Program-made: the position numbers and the translations under genes
Shown here: piece by piece, positions 15,600 to 53,370 of the stretch
How the letters are laid out: each line of letters begins with the position of its first letter
Numbering within the stretch: the first letter of the stretch is position 1
Source: Eledone cirrhosa
Lineage: Eukaryota
Assembly (NCBI GenBank): GCA_964016885.1
Contig: OZ024740.1
Coordinates: forward strand, 367,164,001 to 367,228,000
Direction: 5' to 3'
Length of the DNA stretch: 64,000 nucleotides
Notes under the pieces: model-generated
Told to the model about the DNA's origin: nothing
The model's input: the letters and a program-made list of their open reading frames with translations, nothing else
Databases searched by the model: none

Positions 15600-18500
15600 A
15601 ATGATGATAATAATAATAAAAATAATAATAATAATGCTTTCTTTATTAACCACAAGGGTTTACATAAAGTAGACATTAAGGACAGTACAGGACAATACAG
15701 GACGGTACAAATGGGAATTTCTGAGTGTAAAATAACAAAAACAGAGGATGTAACAAAAAAAAACAATGAAAAATTCCCCAATAGGGGGGAGACCTCCGAG
15801 GGACATTTGTGGAGAAAGCCCATTAAAAGGCCCCAGTGACCCTGACCACCAGGAAAAGTGCCCTCTCCCAGTTTTCCACCTTTAATTTACAGACACATAC
15901 TCAGAGTAGGCCCATTCACTCGGGCCATACTTGCTTCTCTCACCCATCTTTCAACAAAATGCTGGGAAGAAACCACTTCCCTCTCTACCCTGATTTTCCT
16001 TTTCAAATGAAATTTGAAAAAGTTAATCAGGGCATCACCGAAGAGGTAAGTGCTCGTCTTCAGCCCTTTCAAACGTGTCCACCATACTATCTCTTTCGCC
16101 ATGGCCACCAGACAGATAAAAACTGCCTGCGCTTCCCGGCTAAAGGAAGAGAGCGGGGCAATCCTCACGATGGACTCAGTTGATAGCTGGATCCGTCCTA
16201 CACGCGACAGCAGGTGTTCGACATAAACCCACAAGTCAGCAACGCTCGGACACTGGACGATGCGTGCAGGACGGTTTCGTCGCCATGCGCGCATCTCGGA
16301 CATGCCCGGCTGACGGCACCTCCATGCCTGTAGAGTTTATCCCGAACTGGCAAAGCTCCTCGGTAGCACTGCCAGGCCAGGGATTTCTGGAAGTTGTCCA
16401 TAGTCCCCGGCCCGAAAGTTCTTCCGAAGAGACTGGCTAGTTGATTTTCGTCGACGCCTAGAGTTTCTCCAAGTACGTCGTCGCTCTTTCTCTCCACTAA
16501 TCCTCTATAGAACGCCAAGGTGGAGTCTCCACCGACCACATTGCCCGATTGGTCGAGGGCTGTGAGCGCCTGAAGACATTCCAGTCTCCAAGTGCTCCTT
16601 CCCGGACTTCGCTTGACCCAGGACTGCAGCTCTGTCAAGGAGAAGAGCTGGGGAAAGACGCGTATAGCAAACGGTGACCACACCTGATCACCGTCGAGGA
16701 ATATGTGGAGATGTCGCATCATCAGCCACGGCATGCCGAGCCTCCACGTAGCGGGTGTTGACAGCAGATGGCCCGCCTGACCATCGGAGCGCGTCCCTTC
16801 CACAAAAAGCGAAAGAGCAAACGCTCCAGCGCAGTCAAGCGAGGCTTAGTACAAGGCACGACGGTCAGGCGGTAGTAGATGACGGACGCGATGTACGCGT
16901 TAGCCACCTCCGCTCGACCTTTCAGGGATAGCTTCCTCTCCGCCCATTTCTGGGTGAGAGAAGCCACCCAGCTCGTCACTTCGTCCCAGTTTTTGTACGT
17001 CTGGAGGTCCGGACCGAACCAGAGCCTTAGCAATTTAACCGGTCCGTCCGTTCAGCGCGCGACGACGCTGTTGGACGGTATGGACCTGCCTCTCCAGGTG
17101 CCGCGCTGCAGGCCCACCGACTTTTCTTGGTTGGACATTGCTCCTGTCACCATTTCGTATTCTCTTAGTGTAGTGCCGATCGCCTCGATGTGTTTGGCGT
17201 TCGACACAACTACGGTGACATCGTCCGTATATGCTGACACGGATCTTCCGCATCCTAGTTCGCGCGAGACCCCCTCAACGTCTCCAGTTTGTGCAGTAAT
17301 GGCTTGAGAGTCAAAACGTACAAGAGGGATGAGAGGGGACATTTTTGGCTGACCGAGCGCATGATGTTGAACGGTTCCGGAAGGTGACCGTTCACTCTCA
17401 CCACCGAGCAGATGTCGCTGTGCATGGCAGCGATCCAGCCTCTGATAAGGGGCCCAAAGACAGCCACCCTCAGGACTGCCGCTAGGTAACGATCGTCGAC
17501 CCTATCGAAAGCTTTCGACTGATCTAAATTGATCAATGACCCACCCGTGCCAGGTTCCCTAGCTACCCTCTCCACGATATGTCGCATGAGGTGGAGGTTA
17601 TCGTGGATGGATCTGTCTGGAATGGCGTACGTCTGCGCCTCTCCTAAAAGACCACCAACGACAAGCGCCAACGTCTTTGCTAGCACCTTAGCCAACATCT
17701 TGAACTCTGTGCTTAGCAGAGTTATGGGCGTCAAATTATCTATGTTATCCTCGTTGTTTGGATCTTTTCTCAGCAGCGCCACCGTTCCTTGGCTCACAGA
17801 GCTGGGAATTCTCCCGTTTTGTTGCCACTTGCAGTAGACGTCCGCCAAGAGGCCTGCGAACAAGTCTGGCATCTGTACGTAAAGTTCATAGGGAAGACCA
17901 TCCAAACCAGGAGATTTACCCCTTGTGCAGCCAGTCAATGCCTCCCCTATTTCATCTGCTGTTATCGGCTTTCGCAACACTCCGCTTCAGTGGCCGAGAG
18001 CCGCGGAAGTCCACCAAGGTAGACACTAAAGGCCATCCCTCGATCCGGCCCGCCGCTGCCCCCGAACAGCTGAGCGAAGTGTCGCTGAAAAGCTTCACAC
18101 ATTTTCCCGGGATCGAGTAGCATGCGACCCGTCGTGGTCCACTAAAGACCGGATCGTGGATTTGTTGCCACGACGCGCCGCCGCCACTCGGGCCTATTGA
18201 ACGGCTTTCGACCCCTCGTGTCTAAGAGCAAGCACCCTAGCTCTGACAACGCAGCCTTCGTGCTTTGCATTATTGAAGAATTGGTCAAGGGCCAATTTCG
18301 CCGCAAGTACGTCGGTCGCGATGCCTTTGCTAAGCGCCTCGTCTAATTTTCTAACTAGTTCTCCCTCTGCTCTATTTTTCTCTATTGCTAAAGCGTTACT
18401 AAACCTAATGGACTCTATTCTAATCGCTCTTTTCAGCGCAAACCACCACTTGTTGTTGACGATGGCCCCCGTCAACGCCCGCTTAACTCGTTCGCTAATC

Positions 18501-20340
18501 CGGTCTCTGTAGGCCTTGCGCGCTGGTAATGACGCGTTTAGCTTCTAGTAGCCGGGTCCCTGTCTATGAAGCCTATCTGATCCAATGTGACAGATCACGA
18601 ATTTGTGGTCCGTGTAGTCGACCATTTTGAAATGTGGACATCCTATGCTAGGTCTATCTATTTCCCTACAAAATACCTAGATAGCTAGATATGATATGGA
18701 TGACCCGATGCGGTTTGTCCATGTCCACATTGGCACATACAGCAAATCCAGACGGTACCTGTCAGAGAGTTGAAACCGTCTGAGCAGTTTTGCGGGGCTT
18801 TTACCCTCCTCCCATATCCGCTAATCCCATACAGTCCCAGCGTGCATCTAAGATCCCGTTCTAGTCGCCCACTAACACTAAAGAGCAGGACGTTCCAAGA
18901 AGGTCTCCAGACGCCGAAAGAAATCAGGCCGCCCTTCCACTGTCGGGGCATAGACGGCCACTAGCCTGAAAGCTTGCCCGTCTGCGCTGGTCACGTTCAG
19001 CACCACCAACTTACCTTCTGGGTCCTGGAAGATGGCCCGTATGGCGTGATCCAAACCTCTCCGAAAAAGCACAGCAACTCCTCCCCCCAATCCAGGACGG
19101 CTGGGAGATGCGTACAAATCGTAGCCGCCGAAGATCGGTGCGAAGGCCCGTGCTTCGGAGATTCTGGTCTCGCTGATGGCCACCACATCTATGTTTAGTG
19201 ACCTGAGATCGTTGAGCAGGTGGCCCTGCTTCCATGACGACCCCAGGCCACGCGTATTTATGCTGCTTATTCTGAGTGAGGTCATGTTGAAAAGGAGTGG
19301 AAAAAGATGGGAAAGAGAACTTACCTCACTTCTCGTAGAGGAAGGATGGTTTCTTCATTCTTCTCACTGCTTGTGGCCTCCTCTGGAAGGATGTCCTTAT
19401 AAATCCTCCTGGAGTGTGTTTGTCGGAAGTCTCCGATGTCCTTGGGGAATTTTTATTTTAGTGTCGTGTACATTTTCTGTGTGATTCGAGTGATTTGTAT
19501 GTGTGGAGGGGGTGTGAATTTTTAGGCTGTTGTGTAGTCTTTTTCTGTGATGCTGGTGTAGTGCTGGATGTAGCGTAATAATTGGTTGTTGTTCAAATTT
19601 AATGCTGTGTAGTGTGTATCGTTTTGGTTGTTTTGTTTTGTTTGCGTTTGTTGTGGGTTTGTTTCTGTTTCGCATTTTGGTGATTTTTGTGGTTTGGAGA
19701 TGGTGGTTCTGGGATTAATGATGGCGATGGGTGCTGGTGGTGCTGGGGTTGTTGCTGATACAGTTGCTTCTGTTGTTGCTGTTACAGTTGTTGCTGCCAT
19801 TTCTGCTGCTGGTGGTTTTGATGGTTGAGTCACTGGTGTGGGTAGGAGAGGTGGCCTAAACTGTTTAGCCTAAGGGCAGAAAGCTTTTAGGTGGGTTCCT
19901 TTGCCACAAACGACACACCTAGGCCTTCTACACTCAACAATTACTGTGAGGTGGGTGCGGTCATTGAGCTCTATCACCTCTGGAATTTCATCAATGTGTT
20001 ATTGGTCAATGGCCGGTGGAACGTGGGTCACCCTGATCTTCACGGGTGTCTGACCACAATAGCTTGGGGCGAGTGTGAACTCGTCACTTCTTAATGGGGC
20101 CATGGAGTGCTCTCTGGCTTCCCCTGGGGTTCCAAAGAACACGTCCACAGTCCATATTTCTGCCCACGTCTGATACGGGGTTTTTTCGTCCACACATGTC
20201 TCAAAGCTTTTTGTATCTGGGAATCGGATGCCCGTTTCACTCGGCATGATATTGTGTTTATCGCCCGATATGACACGGTGCATAGGCGCCGATGGTCCAT
20301 TTTATTAGATGGGGGGGTGGGGGTGACCCTGTACCCATCT
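15600..20340 (-). mobile_element. Near-full-length, frameshifted Tx1/L1-clade LINE (ORF1 zinc knuckle, APE endonuclease, RT)
   Basis: ORF1 has KIRVTHVP and CVVCGKGTHLKAFC (CX2CX4HX4C, ~19875-19917). APE: SINTRGL..VAISET..VAVYAP (18878-19285). RT: KSPGLDGLP, LDQSKAFDRV, SAYTDD (17052-17980). C-terminal CPRCAHGDETVLH. (ATT)n tail at ~15600-15635. Confidence 0.92.
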
Positions 20341-20454: not shown

Positions 20455-21892
20455 TAATAAGTGTGGAGTCCTAGTGAGGTAAATTGAGCAGAAGCAACGG
20501 AATCCAGGTACCAACACGTGAGATGATAAAGGAAATTGACACTGAAGAGGGATACAAATATTTAGGTGTTCTGGAGGCAGATGACATCAAGAACAAAAAA
20601 ATGAAGGAATTGATAAGATCTGAGTACACAAGGAGAGTAAGGAGCGTATTAAAATCACATCTATATAGTAGGAAATTCATAAGTGCAGTGAATTCCCGAG
20701 CTGTGTCTATTATTAGGTACAGTGCGGGAATTCTGAAATGGAATGTTGCTGAACAAAAAGAAATGGATAGGAAGACTAGGAAGCTATTGACTATCTACAA
20801 CATGTTCCACAAGAGGAGTGATGTCGATAGACTCTACTTAAAGAGATCTAAAGGTGAAAGAGGTCTTATCAGCATAGAGGACTGTGTTCAGATGGAGAAA
20901 AACAACCTGCACAAATATGTGACTGACAGTAGGGAGCCAATGCTAAAAATTGTACTGAAGGAGAAGACAATAGACCAGGGGATGTCCAAGGAGGAAATAA
21001 CAACAAGGAGGAAGGGCAACCTTCATGAAAAATCACTTTATAGTACCTCCTTTAAGAAAACGGAATTTAGAGATCCACAGACATGGAGCTGGTTAAAAAG
21101 AGGAGACCTTAAACAAGCTACAGATGGAATGCTAATGGCTGCGCAAGAGCAAGCCCTCAGAACGAAGTGCGTAAAACACCATATTGACAAGAAGGAGGCT
21201 AGCTCACAGTGTAGGATCTTTGGAGTGAGAGAGAGGAGACTTTTGCTCACATTGTATCCGAGTATAAACACCCAGCCCAGACCCACTATAAAGACTGGAG
21301 ACATGACACGATATGATAGGCAGGGTGATCCACTGGCATCTATGCAAAGTAAACAATTTACCACATTCTCAGAAGTCGTATGAGCATAAGCCAGAGTCGA
21401 TGATAGAAAACGATCAGGTGAAGGTGCTATGGGATTTTAGGATACAGATGCACAAGAAATTAGAACACAATAGGCCTGACCTGGTGGTTTGGGACAAGGA
21501 AAAAAGATCCTGCCTGATTGTAGATGTTGCCTGCCCATTTGACACGAGAGTGCAAGAAAAGGAGAGGGAGAAAATTAACCGATACCAGGATTTAATGTGG
21601 GAGTTAAAAGGGATATGGAAATGCCATGAAATCAAGGTGGTCCCGGTTGTCATAGGCGAATTAGGAACTATCTGAAATGTTTCCAAGGATGGTTAAAGAA
21701 GATTAATCCAGTCCCGCTTTTTAGAATACTTCAAAAGGCATGCTTGCTGGGAACAGCAGGACCCCTCCGATACGTCCTGAATGTCTGAGGCTGAAGGTAG
21801 CGGCTTGATATTCATTTCAACAAACTTTCCAGTTAAATAACATCAATGACTGAGACTCAAAGAATAATAATAATAATGATAATAATAATAAT
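20455..21892 (+). mobile_element. R4/Dong-type RLE LINE, 3' portion
   Basis: YKYLGV, DVDRLYL, AAQEQAL, HNRPDLVVWD..LIVDVACPFD (PD-D/ExK). (TAA)n tail at 21863-21892. Confidence 0.9.
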
Positions 21893-27073: not shown

Positions 27074-27104
<31 letters not shown>

Positions 27105-27345
27105 ATATATATATTTAGAAACACACAGATACATGCGGACACACACATATACATGAATGCATCCACACCCAACCGTGAGTTAAGGGTGCCAACCTCACCG
27201 ATGTTGCTCAATGAATGACTGGGACAGACCAATCCGGTTGAACTAGACTGAACCAGTATCAGAGTTAAAAATACATTATGAAGAGAGAAGAAACATTTAG
27301 ATATAATTAGTAATAAAATATATCATACCCAAACTGCTCCTAGAT

Positions 27346-27435
27346 TCCTCGACTACGTAGTTTCGTGGCATAAACAAAAACAATACATCATAAAGATATA
27401 GAGTCCCTGCGAGGTCTGCCGACTTATCAAGAGGA
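27346..27435 (-). ncRNA. Type-I hammerhead ribozyme, U3-A8 variant (mirror copy)
   Basis: Reverse complement of 27940-28029. Confidence 0.8.
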
Positions 27436-27939
27436 TACCTCATTTTACTAGTCTCAAGAACGCGTCTACACGACGTGAGAAAGAATCCCAAAAGGCGGAG
27501 GGGGAGATAGTCACGCGATATAACGGTCGAGAAACAGAGCTAAGCCTCTTATAACCCCGAAGAAAATACCACAGAGGCGGAGGGGGTATTTATCACCCTT
27601 AACTCATGGTTGGGTGTGGATGCATTCATGTATATGTGTGTGTCCGCATGTATCTGTGTGTTTCTAAATATATTGTTAATAACTCCCTCTGGTTGAGTAA
27701 TCTTTGAAGTGTGGTGGCTGCTGGAAAGCTGCCATTACTCATACTTCTCGCCTCCTTCACCACCTCTTCTACGGCTTCGATATAAATACCCCCTCCGCCT
27801 CTGTGGTATTTTCTTCGGGGTTATAAGAGGCTTAGCTCTGTTTCTCGACCGTTATATCGCGTGACTATCTCCCCCGCCGCCTTTTGGGATTCTTTCTCAC
27901 GTCGTGTAGACGCGTTCTTGAGACTAGTAAAATGAGGTA

Positions 27940-28029
27940 TCCTCTTGATAAGTCGGCAGACCTCGCAGGGACTCTATATCTTTATGATGTATTGTTTTTG
28001 TTTATGCCACGAAACTACGTAGTCGAGGA
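27940..28029 (+). ncRNA. Type-I hammerhead ribozyme, U3-A8 variant (GUC site, cleavage predicted after 28024)
   Basis: TCCTC-TTGATAA-GT(C)GGCA..TGCCAC-GAAA-CTACGTAG-TC-GAGGA. Confidence 0.82.
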
Positions 28030-28099
28030 ATCTAGGGAGCAGTTTAGGTATGATACATTTTATTACTAATTATATCTAAATGTTTCTTCTCTCTTCATA

Positions 28100-28134
<35 letters not shown>

Positions 28135-28581: not shown

Positions 28582-28650
<69 letters not shown>

Positions 28651-28651
<1 letters not shown>

Positions 28652-28853
28652 ACGAAGGAGTTGTAGTAAGGAATCAGTTGGACCATAACGCACCAGAGTA
28701 CTCAATACTTAGGGTAGTAGAGTGGGTAATAGGAGAAAGTATGTCCCCGACGGCAGAGCTCAAGCCGTTTCGACGGCTATTATATTCCACTTTAGTCCAG
28801 AAATAGCCGTCGAAACGACTTGAGCTCTGCCGTCGGGGTCATACTTTCTCCTA
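28651..28853. mobile_element. Short hairpin-ended (TA)n-inserted element
   Basis: ~80-bp unique end plus an inverted repeat ~28729-28781 / 28802-28853. Multiple copies in the window. Confidence 0.8.
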
Positions 28854-29643: not shown

Positions 29644-30147
29644 ATGTGTGTGTATATATATATACATATATATTTGTTTTGCAAGGTTTTTGTTATGAAA
29701 TAAACGAAAGCGGAAACCAGTCCAAACCAAACAGTGAGTGTGTTTTATTATATATTTCTGCCAATATTATAACAATATGACCCTCCCCAAATATAACGAT
29801 ATATATATATAGTCGATATGACATAGTAGTCCGAGCTTTGGATGTTTGTTCGAGTCCTCTGCATTCTGAGTTAAGACCTCTTCGAAGACCGTTCTGCCGA
29901 TCATCTTTCGGGATCAATCAAGAAAATTCCAGCTCAGTGCTTTTGCAGCGCACTTTCTTTCCAATTGTCACATATTGGATATTCTGTTGAATCAAATGAA
30001 GGACGGTCTCGCGCGGGAGTCGATGTATGTCTGTATCTGCTTGCAATTGCTTGAGCATCTATATACTTTAGCATGAAACAACCATTTCATACTATCATGT
30101 ATATTAGATTGCGAGCGATGGTTTGTAGCTTGAAGTATATATATAGA

Positions 30148-30343
30148 TATGAAAAAGTGTGACCCCAACGGCAGAGCTCAAGCCGTTTCGACGGCTATTT
30201 CAATCCAGTAATAGCCGTGCGAAACACGGCTCGAACTCTGCCGTCGGGGTCAGACTATTTCCTATTACCCACTCTACTACCCTAAGTATTGAGTACTCTG
30301 GTGCGTTATGGTCCATCTGGTTCCTTACCACACCTCCTTCGTT
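30148..30343. mobile_element. Short hairpin-ended element (same family as 28651, opposite orientation)
   Basis: Sequence match to 28651 and a terminal hairpin. Confidence 0.8.
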
Positions 30344-30991
30344 AAATATATATACATATATATATATCAGTATGTATACGTGCATACATATATGTATACA
30401 TACGTACAGTAGTATGTATATATATATATATACATACATGCACACACATATATATATATATATGTACGTATGGATTCACCGAACATTTATATAGTTGCGT
30501 TTATATATATATATATATATATATATTAGTAGTAACACAACAGTTAGTGCACCATACCGAGAACAACCTTTAGACCGTGGGAGTTTATCTCTTGGGAGAA
30601 GTGACCGTTTCTGCCCATATGTATTCATACTGTTGTTTTTCTTTTTCCGTACAGCCAGACTCAGTCCGAGCTCAATATCTGCCCTTGTATTATTATATAA
30701 CACTTTGTTTAGCTCTACACCTCACTAGTGATTTGAACCTAAACATCGAAAGCTCACGTGCGTAAACCTACAGAAACTTTACATTACCCTCCCTGGATAT
30801 ATATATATATATATCACATACTTTCAACAACAAAATATATTTATATGTCTTTATATCTTTATATATTTTTGATGGTCTGTTCTATACATAGAACACTCGT
30901 TTTTTCCTTTGCTTTCTCTTCAGAACCATCTAACACGTTTATTTTTATTTTTATATATATTTATATATATGTATATATATATATATTCAGT

Positions 30992-42691: not shown

Positions 42692-42889
42692 AATAATTGT
42701 TCCTACTTTTGGCCAGCAAATACCAAGCAAATACCCAGTGCATTACTGGTACTTTATTTTATCTACCCCGTAAGGATGAAAGGCAAAGTTAACCTCGGCG
42801 GGATTTGAACTCAGATAATAAAGGGCCGTAACTCTTTGCTGCAAAGCTTGGCGTCCGACCCTCTACTGATACTGCCAATCCACCGCCCT
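42692..42889 (-). mobile_element. Nin-domain tRNA SINE
   Basis: Full-length match to the other copies. Confidence 0.9.
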
Positions 42890-45393
42890 TCGAATATACG
42901 TTTCAAGTAAAGGTGGTCTATGTCACTGTTAATGTGGAAGTTTCCGGTGTTGTTCAGTATTTTTCGAGTTCCAACATCAACTGCTCGGATTTCGTCTATC
43001 GTCCAATTGAGTATTCCAAACGTTGGTGTTAGGGCAGACACAGCAAACACATTGTGAGCCACTGTTTTGTTTTGCGCAGAGAGTTCCGATGACCAGATCT
43101 TCCTTAATCGGGTGTAGTATTCCCTGGTTACGCGTTCTTTATTACAGATACCATTATAGGATATGTTCTCATCTATCCCCAGTTATCTGTAGCAGTCCTC
43201 ATCAAATATCGGTGAAACAGTTAGACCATTGCTAGATTGGGTTGTTGTTTTTCCCCGTTTTACAGTCATGTATGAGCATTTATCTTGGCCAAACTCCATT
43301 CCTATATCCTTTGAGAACGTTGTAACCAGGTAAAGATTTTTCTTCATCCCATCCATGTTCTTGGCATAGAGTTTCAGATCGTCCACAAAGAAGTTATGGG
43401 TTAGGTTCGTATTTCTGTCCTCCTGTGAGCCAATGATGTATCCCTCACATTTCTTTAGCAGAAAGGACAAGGGGTTTAATGACAAGATGAACAATATCAC
43501 AGAGAGACTGTCGCCCTGAAATATACCCCTGCAATATTTTATTTTATCAGTGAAAATAGAGTCCTCCCTCTCTGTCTTTACCCTTAGGATAGTAGCCCAA
43601 GAAGAAGACAGCCTCTCATGGCTCTGGCAATAATGTCTGGGACTTTAGCAAGCTGGAGGGCCTCTATCATCCACGAGTGGGGAACAGAATCGAAAGCTTT
43701 CCTGTAGTCCTGCCAGACTGTAGACATATTCCTCCTAAGTTGTCGCACCTCCGACATCGCAGTTTTGTTGATTAGGAGTTGTTCAGCACATACCCAAAAC
43801 CTTTTCTTTCCAGCTGCTTGTTCATATGTGATGATGTTATTATTTTCACTGTGATCTTGGAGGAATAGGTTCAGGCAGGCTGTATACATCTTATACATCA
43901 GGTTCTGGCATGCAATGGGTCGGTAGTTTTTCGCCAAGTGGGTCTCTTTGTTCTTTGGGACCAGTAATGTTTGTGCTAATGTCAACCATTCTGGTATAAG
44001 TGTATCTCCCTTAAGAACTTGTTGGTAGAGGTCAGTAAGATACCTCCGATAGAATATTAGTTTTTTGTACCAGTAGCTGACAATCATGTCTCTTCCTGGT
44101 GTTTTCTTATCTTGGAGTTTTCCTATCACAGTCTCAAGAGTACCCTCACTTATTTCGTATGTTTTTGTTGTAGTGTAGGAGCAATAGTTCTTTCGGATTT
44201 CTCTTAGCCACACTGCATCTTGGTTGAAATTCTTCTCTTCACCCATATTTTTCTCCAAAAGGAATCTCTCTTTCTGGGATGGGGCCTCAGTGACACTTAT
44301 TATTTTGCCCTTCATATCTCTATAGACTGATATTTGGTTTCGTCTGAATCATTTATTAAGCATTTTTCTCTCGTCTACCTTCTTCAGGTATCGGCGTTTT
44401 TCGCTAACAGCTCTCAATTCTTGTTTGAGGGTGATCAGCTTATATTGGAGAGTTCTAGTTCTACTGTTACCAAACATCGTCTCTATTTTATTTTTCGCTC
44501 TTTGTTGGTGAGGAGTGAGGTTCTTTTGCGTTTGTTTGCATGTAAGGAGCATTGTCACATGTCCTAGTTTTTTTCGTAGGTCAGCACTCTTTTTTTCTAT
44601 TTTAGTTATATATGATGGTATTTTTGGTGGTGTTTTGTTCGTGTTAATATCTCTGCTATCACCAAGATAATGCTTCACTGTCATTGCTAAGGCATATAAA
44701 CAGGCGCTGATTTGCCAAAATGTTGGGGTTTTTATCCGTCGTAAATATTCATCCCCTATTTCGTCAATAACACGTAGTATTTCATTATTTGGTTTTTTAT
44801 TTACCATTGTCATTTTAACACGTTCAGCAAGAGAGATATTTATACATGAGTTAATTTCTCTCTGGAAGATTTCGTTGAGGGAAATTTTCAATTGTTTATA
44901 CTCTTGATTATCATTATCGATAGTATTTTCCACAACAGTCGAGGTAGACTCGGATGGTATACGTGGTGTCACATTTATTCGATTATTATTATTATTTCTT
45001 CGATTATTATTATTATCGATAGCATTTTCCCCAGCATTCGAGGTAGACTTAGATGGTACAGGTGGTGTCAAGTTTCTTACAGGCATCGTAGTTTCAAGGC
45101 GCTGTTCGACCTCGCTGCTAGGAAGTCTAGCAGCATGGCGATATGTAGCACGTGTTGTTGATTCCATGTTTGTTGTGGGGGACTTACAATTAATAATATT
45201 TATCTTACTTTTACGTTCAACAAACGTCGCTTGTTGGCGTAATTGTTTCGCTGTGAAATAATTTAGCTCTGGGTGCATTTCGTCCCAGTGTAGCTTCATT
45301 CTATTCATATAGCCAATGGAGGGATTGTTTTTTGCCATTTTATAACAATTAAATAAATCATCATTAAGTTCGCAACTCCAAGAGAAATGCGAT
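42890..45393 (-). mobile_element. R4/Dong-type LINE, N-terminal region and RT, frameshifted
   Basis: NYRPIAC, DYRKAFDSVPHSW, GIFQGDSLS, FFVDDLKLY, SDIDHLYL. Confidence 0.9.
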
Positions 45394-45490
45394 TTATAAT
45401 ATGTATGTATGTATGTATGTAAGTATGTATTTAAGTATGTATGTGTGTATGTATGTATGTATGTATGTAAGTATGGATGTATGTAGGTAT

Positions 45491-46259: not shown

Positions 46260-48340
46260 TATATTGTCATACTTTGGGAGGGTCATGTAGCTAATAATAA
46301 CACATGCATCTGCGGTTTTCACTTCAATTTATTATAAATTTCCGGTTGGATGGTTGGTTCGATAACCAGATGATTGTTTATATATTGTCAAAGCTATTTC
46401 GTCGCACATCCTGTGACCTCCTCAGTGACTGGGCTTTTATTTTTTGTCTCTCCTTTGTGCCTGTATGTTATATGTTGTGTGCTTGGTTTGCGCATGCGTT
46501 ACATCCGTGTGTATCTGTGTGTGTGTGTGTGTTTTATGTGTTTATTTACTTGTCACTAGTTGGTTGTTCGTTCTATCTGTGTGTGTCTGATTTGTTTTAA
46601 TAGTTTAGTTTTTGTGTGTGTCTGTATGTCTTCATTTTGTCCTTAATTATTAGTTGTAATGTTGCTATTACACTCTGTTTAATTCTGTTTAATTTTGGGT
46701 GGAGTTAGTTTATGTAATTTGTCTGGTCATTGCATCTTTTTTGTGTTTGGATATAATTTTAATTTCTATGTTCTCCAGTGTGCCCATATATTCTATTTTG
46801 GCATGTTGGACTTCTCGCCAGTATTCATTTATCCTTTCTCTTATGCTACGGGCTGTTTCACGTATGTATGTTGTACTCTGTTCCTCAGTACAGCTTATGC
46901 TATATACTACGTTTCTAGTTTTGCAGTTAGATTTCGAGATTAGCTTGCAGTCTATGCATTTCCTATGAGTGCAGCGGGTTCTTTGAAATGGATATATGTT
47001 TTACTAATTAGGGTTTTTATGGGAATACCTGGTCTTAATACCTATCTAAATATTCAATATGAGCTTGCCAAGAGTCCTTCTAAATCTGTAAGCTAGTTCA
47101 CCTCAAGGGTTGTATTACACTCTGGTATTTATTGCTACCATACCATGATTTGTTTTTATTTGCCTTTTTCCTAATCCTTTCTATTCTGTTCCAACATTTG
47201 CTCCTATAGATGGGGCAAGTCCCATTTACATCATTTTCGACAAATATTTCCCCATTTAGTCCTGCCTCGTTTATATACCCTGATCTTGTCTCTCTGGTTG
47301 TAGCCAGAGAAATGCATTATTTAGGATTGTACATGCAGGAATCGTTCCCCACCACTCTTACTAAGTCCGCAATCAGTAAATTGATTTTCATGTGATCCGA
47401 AACAGCTGAGTTTCGGTGGATCAGTTACTTGGAGGTCATGGGTTTGGCACAATGCGAATGGAGGATTTCCGTTCTATTACTAATAATTTCCAACCATAGT
47501 TCTGTGTCTAGTACGGGTAGTCTATAGTTGGGGTATTTATTTGGGTAGTCTATAGTAACTTTAATACTCTGGTGGATGGATTTAGTTATTTATTGGATGC
47601 TTTCCATCGTGTTCTTCTCTAATTCCTGATTGTTCTCCTGTAGGGTTGTTTTTACTAAGATGTTTATGTCATCTATGTAGCGGGAGTACATAGTCAGGGT
47701 TATAAAATTGTTGTCTAAGCGTTCCCACCACACCAGAGGTTAGCTATGGTACCTGCAATGCTAACGCCAATGGCTACCCCCTTCGCTTGGGCATATGTTT
47801 TGCATTAAACCTGAACATATGTTACTTAAGGGTTAGTTTTATACTGGCCTACACCTCATGTGCGATCATTTTCTTTAATTTATCATGGTTTTCGGGGGTC
47901 CGTATGACTCTGGTCCACCCACTCCATCTTTCTATGTGGGTCTTCTTGGCCATTGAGGTAATGGTGGTTGGTTTGCCTCTATCTGGCCTTAAGGGGCAGA
48001 GACTGCTGAGGTCATGTGTGTCTAAATATTCCTTATTATGTGTGAGTTTAAGTAGGAGTCCCAGTCCACTGGTATCAATCCCACGGAATTCCACATCGCT
48101 CTCGCTGGTCATTTCTAAGCATTTCTCCACAACAAAATCAACGAATGGGTATAGGGACACTACATCCATGCAACCTATTGAACAGGATGTTAGGTCCCTA
48201 GACGGATTGCATTCACCGTTTCTGCTGAGGATGGCCTCCGTGCTGTCGCACATATATGGGGACATTTCGATTATATGGCGTATGATATATAATTGCCTGA
48301 ATTTTAAGATTGAAATAAAAGCCCTCAGTATTTAAATGTA
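46260..48340 (-). mobile_element. Decayed Penelope-like element: RT + GIY-YIG endonuclease + 3' pseudo-LTR with hammerhead
   Basis: MDVVSLYP (~48150), KGVAIG (~47775), SRYIDDI (~47675), NCKTRNVVYSISC..YIRETARSIRERI (~46830-46930). The pLTR 46260-46700 matches 5456-5905. Confidence 0.88.
46387..46429 (-). ncRNA. Minimal hammerhead ribozyme in PLE pLTR
   Basis: Minus strand: GTCA-CTGAGGA-GGTCACAGGATGTGCGAC-GAAA-TAGC-TT-TGAC. Confidence 0.68.
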
Positions 48341-48527
48341 AAGGTAAATATATCATATTATATAAAACATATGGCAGTTTCCCGAGGCATGCTGATGTTA
48401 TTGCTGTTTCATTCGCCAGAATGGGTGACGATCGAAGCATCAATAACATTGTCTTGCCTCGAGAAACTTTGCGTACCTAGGAAGATATATGCTATTTTGG
48501 TATGTCTTTTATATATTATAATATAAT

Positions 48528-51743: not shown

Positions 51744-53370
51744 ATGTTAAGTAAGTGTTGTAGGGTTAGGACATCTTAGGAATGGGGGATGACTGTGTAT
51801 AGGGATTTGATGCCGAGGGTGAAGAGAAGGTGCGGGGAGCCAGGTGGCAAAATGAAGGAATTGAAGAGGTGGAGGGCGTGGTTAGTGTCAGAAATGTGGG
51901 ACCGTAGGCTAGCAACCAGTAGGGAGAATATAGAATCAAGAAAGGAGGGGACTAGTTCAGTGACTCCATCCCCTATTCCCAATTCTTCCGTCTATGCCGC
52001 CTGTGTAGTCGAACCCATCATTCAACTCTCATTACATGGCCAGACATCTCCCTAGAGGTGGATACCCCCTACACTGATCTAAGCCGCCCTCACCCATACC
52101 CGCGGCGTCGATTGCACCAGTGCCCTTACTTCACGCTTCAGACACCCTACCAACCGACTTCCTATCCCCCTTACCACCCTTCTACCTTGCCCCTCCAGAA
52201 GATGATCCTCCATCCTTTCCGCCGTCTACAGTCTGTTCCATCAACCTCCACCATTCCCCCCCTTCATTCGAGCGCGCTCGTAACCTTCGGAAAATCTTCG
52301 TCCGTAGCGCCCTTAATTCGCCCAACACCTCTCCTGGATTCCACCCTATTCCCAACCCCACTGCCATATATGCAGCTTTATCACCCAAACCACCACCCTT
52401 TTCCGTCCCCATGACCGTTCTTGCCGGGTTAGGGACACCTTCAGCTGCAACTCCACCAGCCTTGTCTATGGGATCCGTTGTACTCTGTGCGGAGCTATCT
52501 ACCATGGTCAGACTGGCCGTCATCTGGCTGAGGAAACAGCAACTTATTTTCTCCTTAGAAAGCTTTCTTCCCCCTCACCACCCATCTACCTTTAATCTAC
52601 TCTGTCATATACTCTCTCTGACACACTAAACTCCGTCTTTTATCCTATGACACATACTCCTTAATACATACACACTTACATACATATCCCAGTTAGATCT
52701 TTCACGTACACATAAACTTCAACATACATACACATGTTATTATTTATCATAAGGGCGGTGGATTGGCAGTATCGGTAGAGAGTCGGACACCATGCTTTGA
52801 AGCATAGAGTTACGTCCCTTTACGATCTGAGTTCAAATCCCGCCGAGGTTGACTTTGCCTTTCATCCTTACGGGGTCGATAAAATAAAGTACCAGTAATG
52901 TACTGGGTAATTGCTGGCCTTGTGCCTAAAATAGAAACAGTTATTATTTATCATACACTTACGCATAGTAATCCACTTTTATCACGGACATACACTACAC
53001 TACCGATACTTTATACACACACACACACACACACAATTACTTCAACGCACATAAACAGTTCACATACATGTCCACTACCAATAACACATGGATATACACC
53101 TACACTCAATTTCTTTGTTACTTTAAACATTTTACCTTTTAAATCATCCACATTTAAACTTACACTTACACTCACACATATAACAATACTAATACACACA
53201 CACCCACTTTGCGTTCTTACTCGTTACCAAGACTTATTTCCCCTTTTCATTTTCGTTTTACTTGTGTCTTTACTGGACATTTTTTCTCTTTCTCCATTGC
53301 AATCCCGCCTCTAATTGTACTCCTGAAGAAGGGCTTACCCCGACACGTCGAACTTTCGTTCCTCTTTACA
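51740..53370 (+). mobile_element. Decayed Penelope-like element with inverted 5' RT fragment, GIY-YIG remnant and degenerate 3' hammerhead
   Basis: Minus 51776-51982 reads LLFTLGIKSLYTVIPH (PLE RT motif A). Plus strand reads RARNLRKIFVRS and FSCNSTSLVYGIRCTLCGAIYHGQTGR (~52440-52520). CTGAAGAAGGGCTTACCCCGACACGTC at 53323-53349. Confidence 0.8.
52753..52946 (+). mobile_element. Nin-domain tRNA SINE
   Basis: Full-length and near identical to 59937-60122. Confidence 0.92.

Follow-up and report, generated by a model that had tools for sequence, protein, structure and literature searches.

The window analyzed here, a 64,000-nt stretch of the Eledone cirrhosa genome (assembly GCA_964016885.1, contig OZ024740.1, positions 367,164,001 to 367,228,000, forward strand), contains two head-to-head arms that are about 1% apart and are embedded in a (TA)n run. 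Arm Y (27782-28105) aligns with the reverse complement of 27271-27593 over 324 nt at 98.8% identity (3 mismatches, 1 indel), and arm X (27594-27673) aligns with the reverse complement of 27109-27188 over 80 nt with 1 mismatch. The plus strand reads X-spacer-Y, the minus strand reads Y-tail-X, and both outer ends of the locus pass into (TA)n. These alignments confirm the interlocked inverted repeat and the segment order that had been described from the letters alone (referred to below as the sequence-only reading). The layout given there also stands, with two corrections: X starts at 27594 and not at 27593, and the tail put at ~83 nt is 82 nt long (27189-27270). Within the window, no copies of the underlying 593-nt repeat were found beyond these two arms. 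The locus is composed of the following parts.

27094..27113, no strand: (TA)n target tract, left flank, read from the sequence; the ends of almost all copies sampled are likewise (TA)n
27109..27593, minus strand: arm 1, 5'-truncated, with Y, ribozyme, tail, and X; stops at fixed site B (monomer position 80)
27109..27188, minus strand: segment X, which reaches to site B and shares a few bases with the TA target
27189..27270, minus strand: 82-nt stretch separating X from site A; this stretch and X make up the 162-nt "tail" that lies between both fixed 3' ends
27346..27442, minus strand: type I hammerhead motif, copy 1, from a motif scan; predicted cut after 27351
27593..27594, no strand: head-to-head junction of both 5'-truncated arms, without clear microhomology
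27594..28105, plus strand: arm 2, 5'-truncated, with X, spacer, Y, and ribozyme; stops at fixed site A (monomer position 511)
27674..27781, plus strand: 108-nt spacer, which belongs to the monomer and occurs in arm 2 only
27781..27881, plus strand: TATA-like word and two C-rich boxes, from an alignment of four monomers
27933..28029, plus strand: type I hammerhead motif, copy 2; predicted cut after 28024
27945-27951 and 27966-28000, plus strand: U3-A8 core and inserted helix II hairpin, respectively, of hammerhead copy 2, which also has a palindromic loop 3
27933-27938 with 27960-27965, plus strand: candidate pseudoknot in hammerhead copy 2
28103..28131, no strand: (TA)n target tract, right flank, read from the sequence

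The motif scan of the window returned three matches, one in each arm and one that is apparently due to chance, which bears out the earlier assignment of a ribozyme arm, although an Rfam scan of the window reported only microsatellite-driven miRNA matches and no hammerhead. In the four-monomer alignment, the first C-rich box is invariant across subfamilies and the second has one change in the oldest subfamily; together with the TATA-like word, the boxes represent a possible internal promoter. The insertion had been considered recent, which holds in a relative sense and not as an absolute date, as the arms diverge by 1.0%, more than most of 20 other measured pairs. Elsewhere in the window are a second family of inverted repeats (28627-28847 and 30147-30367), which has TA ends and a long hairpin inside and whose sequence also flanks L120; decayed Penelope-like remnants (46800-48400, minus strand, and 51950-53250, plus strand), the second ending in a hammerhead-like core followed by TA; and decayed pieces of non-LTR retrotransposons (15900-19350, 20480-21675, and 42800-45490), two of which match Pfam RVT_1.

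A search of the genome (3.0 Gb) yielded 103 matches from 40 scored candidates at 95 to 100% identity, many of them 593 nt apart, and locus L128 has six unit starts spaced exactly 593 nt. The first 60 loci provided 21 distinct ribozyme-to-ribozyme monomers of 591 to 595 nt with identities of 94.2 to 99.8%. These natural arrays establish the monomer that had been reconstructed from the locus, with a length of 593 nt instead of ~595 nt, and they support the head-to-tail template X-spacer-Y-tail, which is present as arrays elsewhere in the genome. Copies number in the thousands: a 24-mer of the hammerhead spanning the predicted cut had 7,444 genome matches, and its reversed control had none. Tandem Repeats Finder, run with a period limit of 500, missed the 593-nt arrays. 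The unit has a GC content of 0.43, and its longest stop-to-stop frame is 80 amino acids (among the frames listed). Neither the frame list, an ORF screen, nor tblastn revealed a reverse transcriptase or GIY-YIG endonuclease ORF in the unit, and tblastn with six autonomous proteins gave no match to it. On this sequence evidence, the 593-nt repeat is best described as a high-copy, noncoding retrozyme or nonautonomous Penelope-like element. An intron after the ribozyme and a remnant of an endonuclease C terminus in the spacer had also been considered from the sequence alone, and both were left unsupported.

Relaxed patterns uncovered older subfamilies with 15 and 270 matches (controls, 0), whose monomers are 588 to 593 nt long and have 77% and 63% identity to the young monomer. 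When folded as circles, the monomers were more stable than their shuffles (z = -5 to -9; 20 shuffles). Contigs from two other organisms (runs X5 and X6, of unrecorded type) contain pieces 90 to 99% similar to the unit, one of them spanning 617 nt, and the family may thus occur in related species too. One near-identical single copy in this genome (L131, G000:C7:90558500-90563500) starts at the same base as the plus arm of the window, and its two flanks, upstream and downstream, are inverted copies of each other.

The hammerhead motif, predicted to be self-cleaving, is of type I, occurs once per unit, and has U3-A8 in place of C3-G8; its loop 3 is palindromic, and its helix II carries a hairpin of 35 nt. 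Its structure was evaluated with 29 sequences, i.e., 37 nonredundant sequences minus 8 with deletions, flank junctions, or near-duplicates. In this set, 90.3% of cells were paired, compared with 30 to 46% with slid partners, with relatedness among the sequences inflating the counts. In subfamilies with identities as low as 63%, both-sided changes were seen in helices I and II, in the loop 3 palindrome, and in the hairpin inserted in helix II; one search pattern favored palindromes, and unbiased inner positions had already shown alternative ones. The single motif was not more stable than shuffled sequences (z = -0.37), and in the predicted fold of two ribozymes, the two loop palindromes pair with each other, as in dimeric hammerheads. 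In all subfamilies, a six-base word preceding helix I is retained along with its complement, which lies in the internal loop of helix II. For this candidate pseudoknot, 92% of cells were paired with one wobble change by subfamily. A double change at one of its pairs was seen in a single copy among 225 matches to the older subfamilies, and true covariation was found neither in the aligned subfamilies nor by a pattern search confined to the older ones. The first pseudoknot word might be conserved for another reason, such as a splice donor.

The U3-A8 core variant is described in Schistosoma Penelope-like elements (PMC4209133) and elsewhere (PMC3088659). According to the accessible text of these two papers, the hammerheads described there share with ours the U3-A8 covariation, a bulged base in helix II, a short helix III, a palindromic loop for dimer action, and a possible pseudoknot between helices I and II. 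In contrast, the combination of these features with a 35-nt hairpin that lengthens helix II past the internal loop is absent from that text. This genome also has a further hammerhead repeat with a U3-A8 core (L209 to L238, e.g., L216), in which helix II is short, the unit is ~319 nt, and the ends are TA; a short-helix pattern had 164 matches versus 15 in the control, most of them from this family.

To describe the ends of insertions, we used the first 100 exact matches listed on contig C1, which represent 51 loci, and scored 50 of them after dropping a rearranged older relative (L102). Half of the scored loci (25 of 50) are inverted, i.e., head to head, and the other 25 have a single orientation. 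Two 3' ends recur in the sample, site A at monomer positions 505 to 513 and site B at positions 77 to 87, and they are 162 nt apart. Among the inverted insertions, 23 of 25 combine one arm ending at A with one ending at B, none has A+A or B+B, and two (L047 and L104) have one odd end; the excess of A+B is unlikely under equal odds (P = 1e-7). Two of these loci, L054 and L057, are duplicates, leaving 22 independent cases, and the plus end of L034 was taken from the overlapping L035. The insertion in the window is a typical A+B case. Single-orientation copies end at site A in 12 cases, at site B in 12, and elsewhere in 1. In the oldest subfamily, site A is homologous and site B lies elsewhere, ~120 nt from A, and the three inverted pairs seen are all A+B. 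Almost every copy in the sample runs into (TA)n at its end, and at both fixed ends a few bases are shared with the TA target; target-site duplications are unreadable within TA runs. Contigs from sequencing runs of unrecorded type show just the same two TA-joined ends.

Arm lengths and 5' ends are variable. Thirty-three of 75 arms are longer than one unit (maximum, 2,907 nt), and the 5' ends are scattered, with a cluster at monomer positions 179 to 262. We do not read this cluster as a transcription start, as TA microhomology accounts for several of the ends. Most head-to-head junctions unite two unrelated monomer positions. The circular permutation perceived in the sequence-only reading is real as a pattern, and it appears because two 5'-truncated arms start from two fixed positions in a tandem template, a signature that is ordinary for Penelope-like elements. 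Inverted Penelope-like units are known to have a 30- to 40-bp tail at one end (PMC8557442 and PMC3846280, in the portions available), and for a lizard Penelope-like protein, published work describes AT-rich targets, a predicted dimer, and initiation at two internal sites in vitro (PMC11167929, likewise from partial text). A published count of the one-arm-per-site rule was not found in the open-access text.

Within an insertion, the copies of the unit resemble one another more than chance would predict. In 35 loci (L093, L123, L102, L057, and L047 were omitted), the first and last copies agreed at 920 of 929 polymorphic-site comparisons, where 285 disagreements are expected at random, i.e., one haplotype per insertion, although linkage of the polymorphic sites means that this figure overstates independence. 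Of 94 locus-private changes, 17 were in all copies, 74 were in one copy, and 3 were in a subset. Arm-to-arm divergence averaged 0.9%, compared with 2.6% to the median other locus, and in only 12 of 21 pairs did the two arms diverge less from each other than from the closest other locus. Gene conversion could contribute to the resemblance between arms. The array at L128 has nested changes that are unexplained by one pass around a circle. Most copying crosses the predicted cut, because on a linear, ribozyme-cut monomer, synthesis would run out after 80 nt when started at site A and after 242 nt when started at site B. These patterns lead us to favor a bottleneck of one monomer per insertion, which could be a circle or exact jumping between linear monomers.

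Our preferred explanation, held with moderate confidence, is that the locus is one insertion of a 593-nt hammerhead retrozyme into (TA)n, made by a Penelope-type enzyme acting in trans and probably copied from one circular monomer RNA. The monomer, arrays, copy number, TA flanks, end rules, haplotypes, and covariation are read from the DNA, and from them we infer the steps of transposition. Tandem copies would be transcribed, and two ribozymes would pair by their palindromic loops and excise a monomer, which would then be ligated. The enzyme would nick both strands of a TA run, and a pair of reverse transcriptases, likely dimerized on a single RNA, would prime at sites A and B with the aid of a few bases of TA microhomology. 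Each reverse transcriptase would continue beyond the ligated cut, for up to several rounds, before both cDNA ends are joined head to head. At the window locus, 512 nt would have been copied from site A and 485 nt from site B, giving the interlocked pattern. Several observations count against this explanation: uncleaved RNA is the main in vitro substrate of the lizard Penelope-like protein (PMC11167929), and eight of nine predicted Xenopus retrozymes did not cleave (bioRxiv 10.64898/2026.07.22.740005), both as given in partial texts of these sources. The failure of the single motif to fold better than shuffles, the arm closeness in only 12 of 21 pairs, the nested changes of L128, and the lack of a parent in three autonomous families (see below) also count against it.

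It is possible, and in our judgment appreciably less probable, that the same element and enzyme used a linear template, by jumping into self-cleaved monomers or by using uncleaved read-through multimers from homogeneous arrays, such that a circle is unneeded. Arms that begin exactly at the predicted cut number 19 (~16 independent; 12 were inspected, and all are true junctions), compared with 1, 4, 8, 7, and 4 arm starts at five control positions under similar filters, and this mild enrichment suggests that a free 5' end may have been present there on a fraction of the templates. The two- to fourfold excess is also a modest hint of cleavage in vivo. Autonomous elements of this genome form tandems as well (L205), and uncleaved RNA is functional in vitro in the available part of PMC11167929. 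In contrast, inherited multimers should collect unit-specific changes, and private changes shared by all units outnumber those in a subset by 17 to 3; moreover, set against the 7,444 exact matches across the cut, arms starting there are <1% of arms, i.e., >99% of passes cross it. Precise jumping between copies of one monomer and copying of a circle are indistinguishable by DNA alone.

Self-priming or fold-back, e.g., on an antisense template as proposed in PMC3846280 (in the text available), may instead have made the inverted pairs, with later unequal crossover and gene conversion making the arrays and the arm likeness. A few junctions do have both arms starting at one position (L116 and L126), and the nested changes of L128 suggest some local expansion. 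We consider this explanation improbable, as fold-back does not predict A+B in 23 of 25 insertions and most junctions join unrelated positions. Least probable of all, and largely refuted, is the reading that an ordinary Penelope-like element with an ORF had its body truncated and that the arms are its terminal repeats (pLTR plus tail): although all the structural hallmarks are Penelope-like as described in partial texts of PMC8557442 and PMC3846280, the unit closes on itself in arrays, no frame exceeds 80 amino acids among those listed, the length stays at 588 to 595 nt across subfamilies down to 63% identity, and a shared ORF is reached by no sampled copy.

Consistent with this, X followed by a long ORF, the arrangement that the sequence-only reading had set against its monomer, is absent from the 51 sampled loci, and an ORF screen of L092 to L131 detected only frames of neighboring elements. 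A rare ORF-bearing copy, if any, would be the parent and not the bulk of the family. Three young autonomous families (~1,230 to 1,290, 758, and 900 amino acids) share no DNA or protein with the unit, and no homologous pLTR was found in them; their overlap with the unit is limited to short repeat matches and to mini copies that lie inserted next to them. The short-helix U3-A8 repeat was rejected as a parent, as it is another noncoding repeat. The largest autonomous family (L086 to L091; G000 C4, C3, C28, and C2) is young and high copy, with frames of 1,227 to 1,294 amino acids and (TA)n targets. It has its own canonical hammerhead core and two 3' ends ~60 nt apart, as read by eye, and the two arms of L088 carry one end of each kind. 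The second (L181 and L206 to L208; ~758 amino acids) has an RDD-type reverse transcriptase motif, and the third (L203 and L205; ~900 amino acids) has tandem and inverted copies.

Under the preferred reading of a retrozyme moved by a Penelope-type enzyme, the class and the proposed life cycle are already known. As described in the accessible text of PMC7229834 and bioRxiv 10.64898/2026.07.22.740005, metazoan non-LTR retrozymes likewise have a noncoding tandem unit, one type I hammerhead, a GC content of <50%, thousands of copies, co-occurring Penelope-like elements, and a predicted self-paired circle. The 593-nt unit is larger than the retrozyme circular RNAs shown there (170 to 400 nt) and falls within the range of 51 to 972 bp given in the preprint. 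Unlike those retrozymes, the family described here has a long insert in helix II and a core of the U3-A8 type, half of the insertions sampled are head to head with fixed ends, and no homologous pLTR was found in the three families checked. With endonuclease-bearing Penelope-like elements, as far as they are covered in the available text of PMC11167929, PMC8557442, and PMC3846280, it shares two fixed 3' ends, a one-arm tail, an inverted 5'-truncated copy, partial tandems, (TA)n targets, and a hammerhead near the 3' end. It differs from them in having no ORF and a tail of 162 nt (120 nt in the oldest subfamily) versus 30 to 40. At both of its ends there is a few-base overlap with the TA target; in the accessible part of PMC11167929, by contrast, the lizard protein initiated at sites lacking homology to the cut DNA. 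Novel to this family are the architecture of its ribozyme, a tail that is long and shifts, the series of subfamilies, and the surplus of arm ends at the predicted cut.

We speculate, with considerable reserve, that the family may represent a long-lived lineage of circular RNAs of ~590 nt that has kept moving as one subfamily succeeded another, with no recognizable parent and with a U3-A8 hammerhead that is pseudoknotted, activated by dimerization, and undescribed in its architecture. In this scenario, a Penelope-type dimer would carry the RNA, priming the two strands of a TA break from a pair of sites on a single circle, with a spacing that could change from 120 to 162 nt. The tandem and inverted insertion mode of Penelope-like elements and the movement of retrozymes as circles are posed as open questions in those parts of the literature that were accessible. 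For such questions, the family is a short, high-copy substrate with a countable rule of one arm per start site, with a tail of four- to fivefold the usual length that could be dissected in vitro, and with a series of subfamilies in which one start site moved, together with a hint of ribozyme cutting in vivo.
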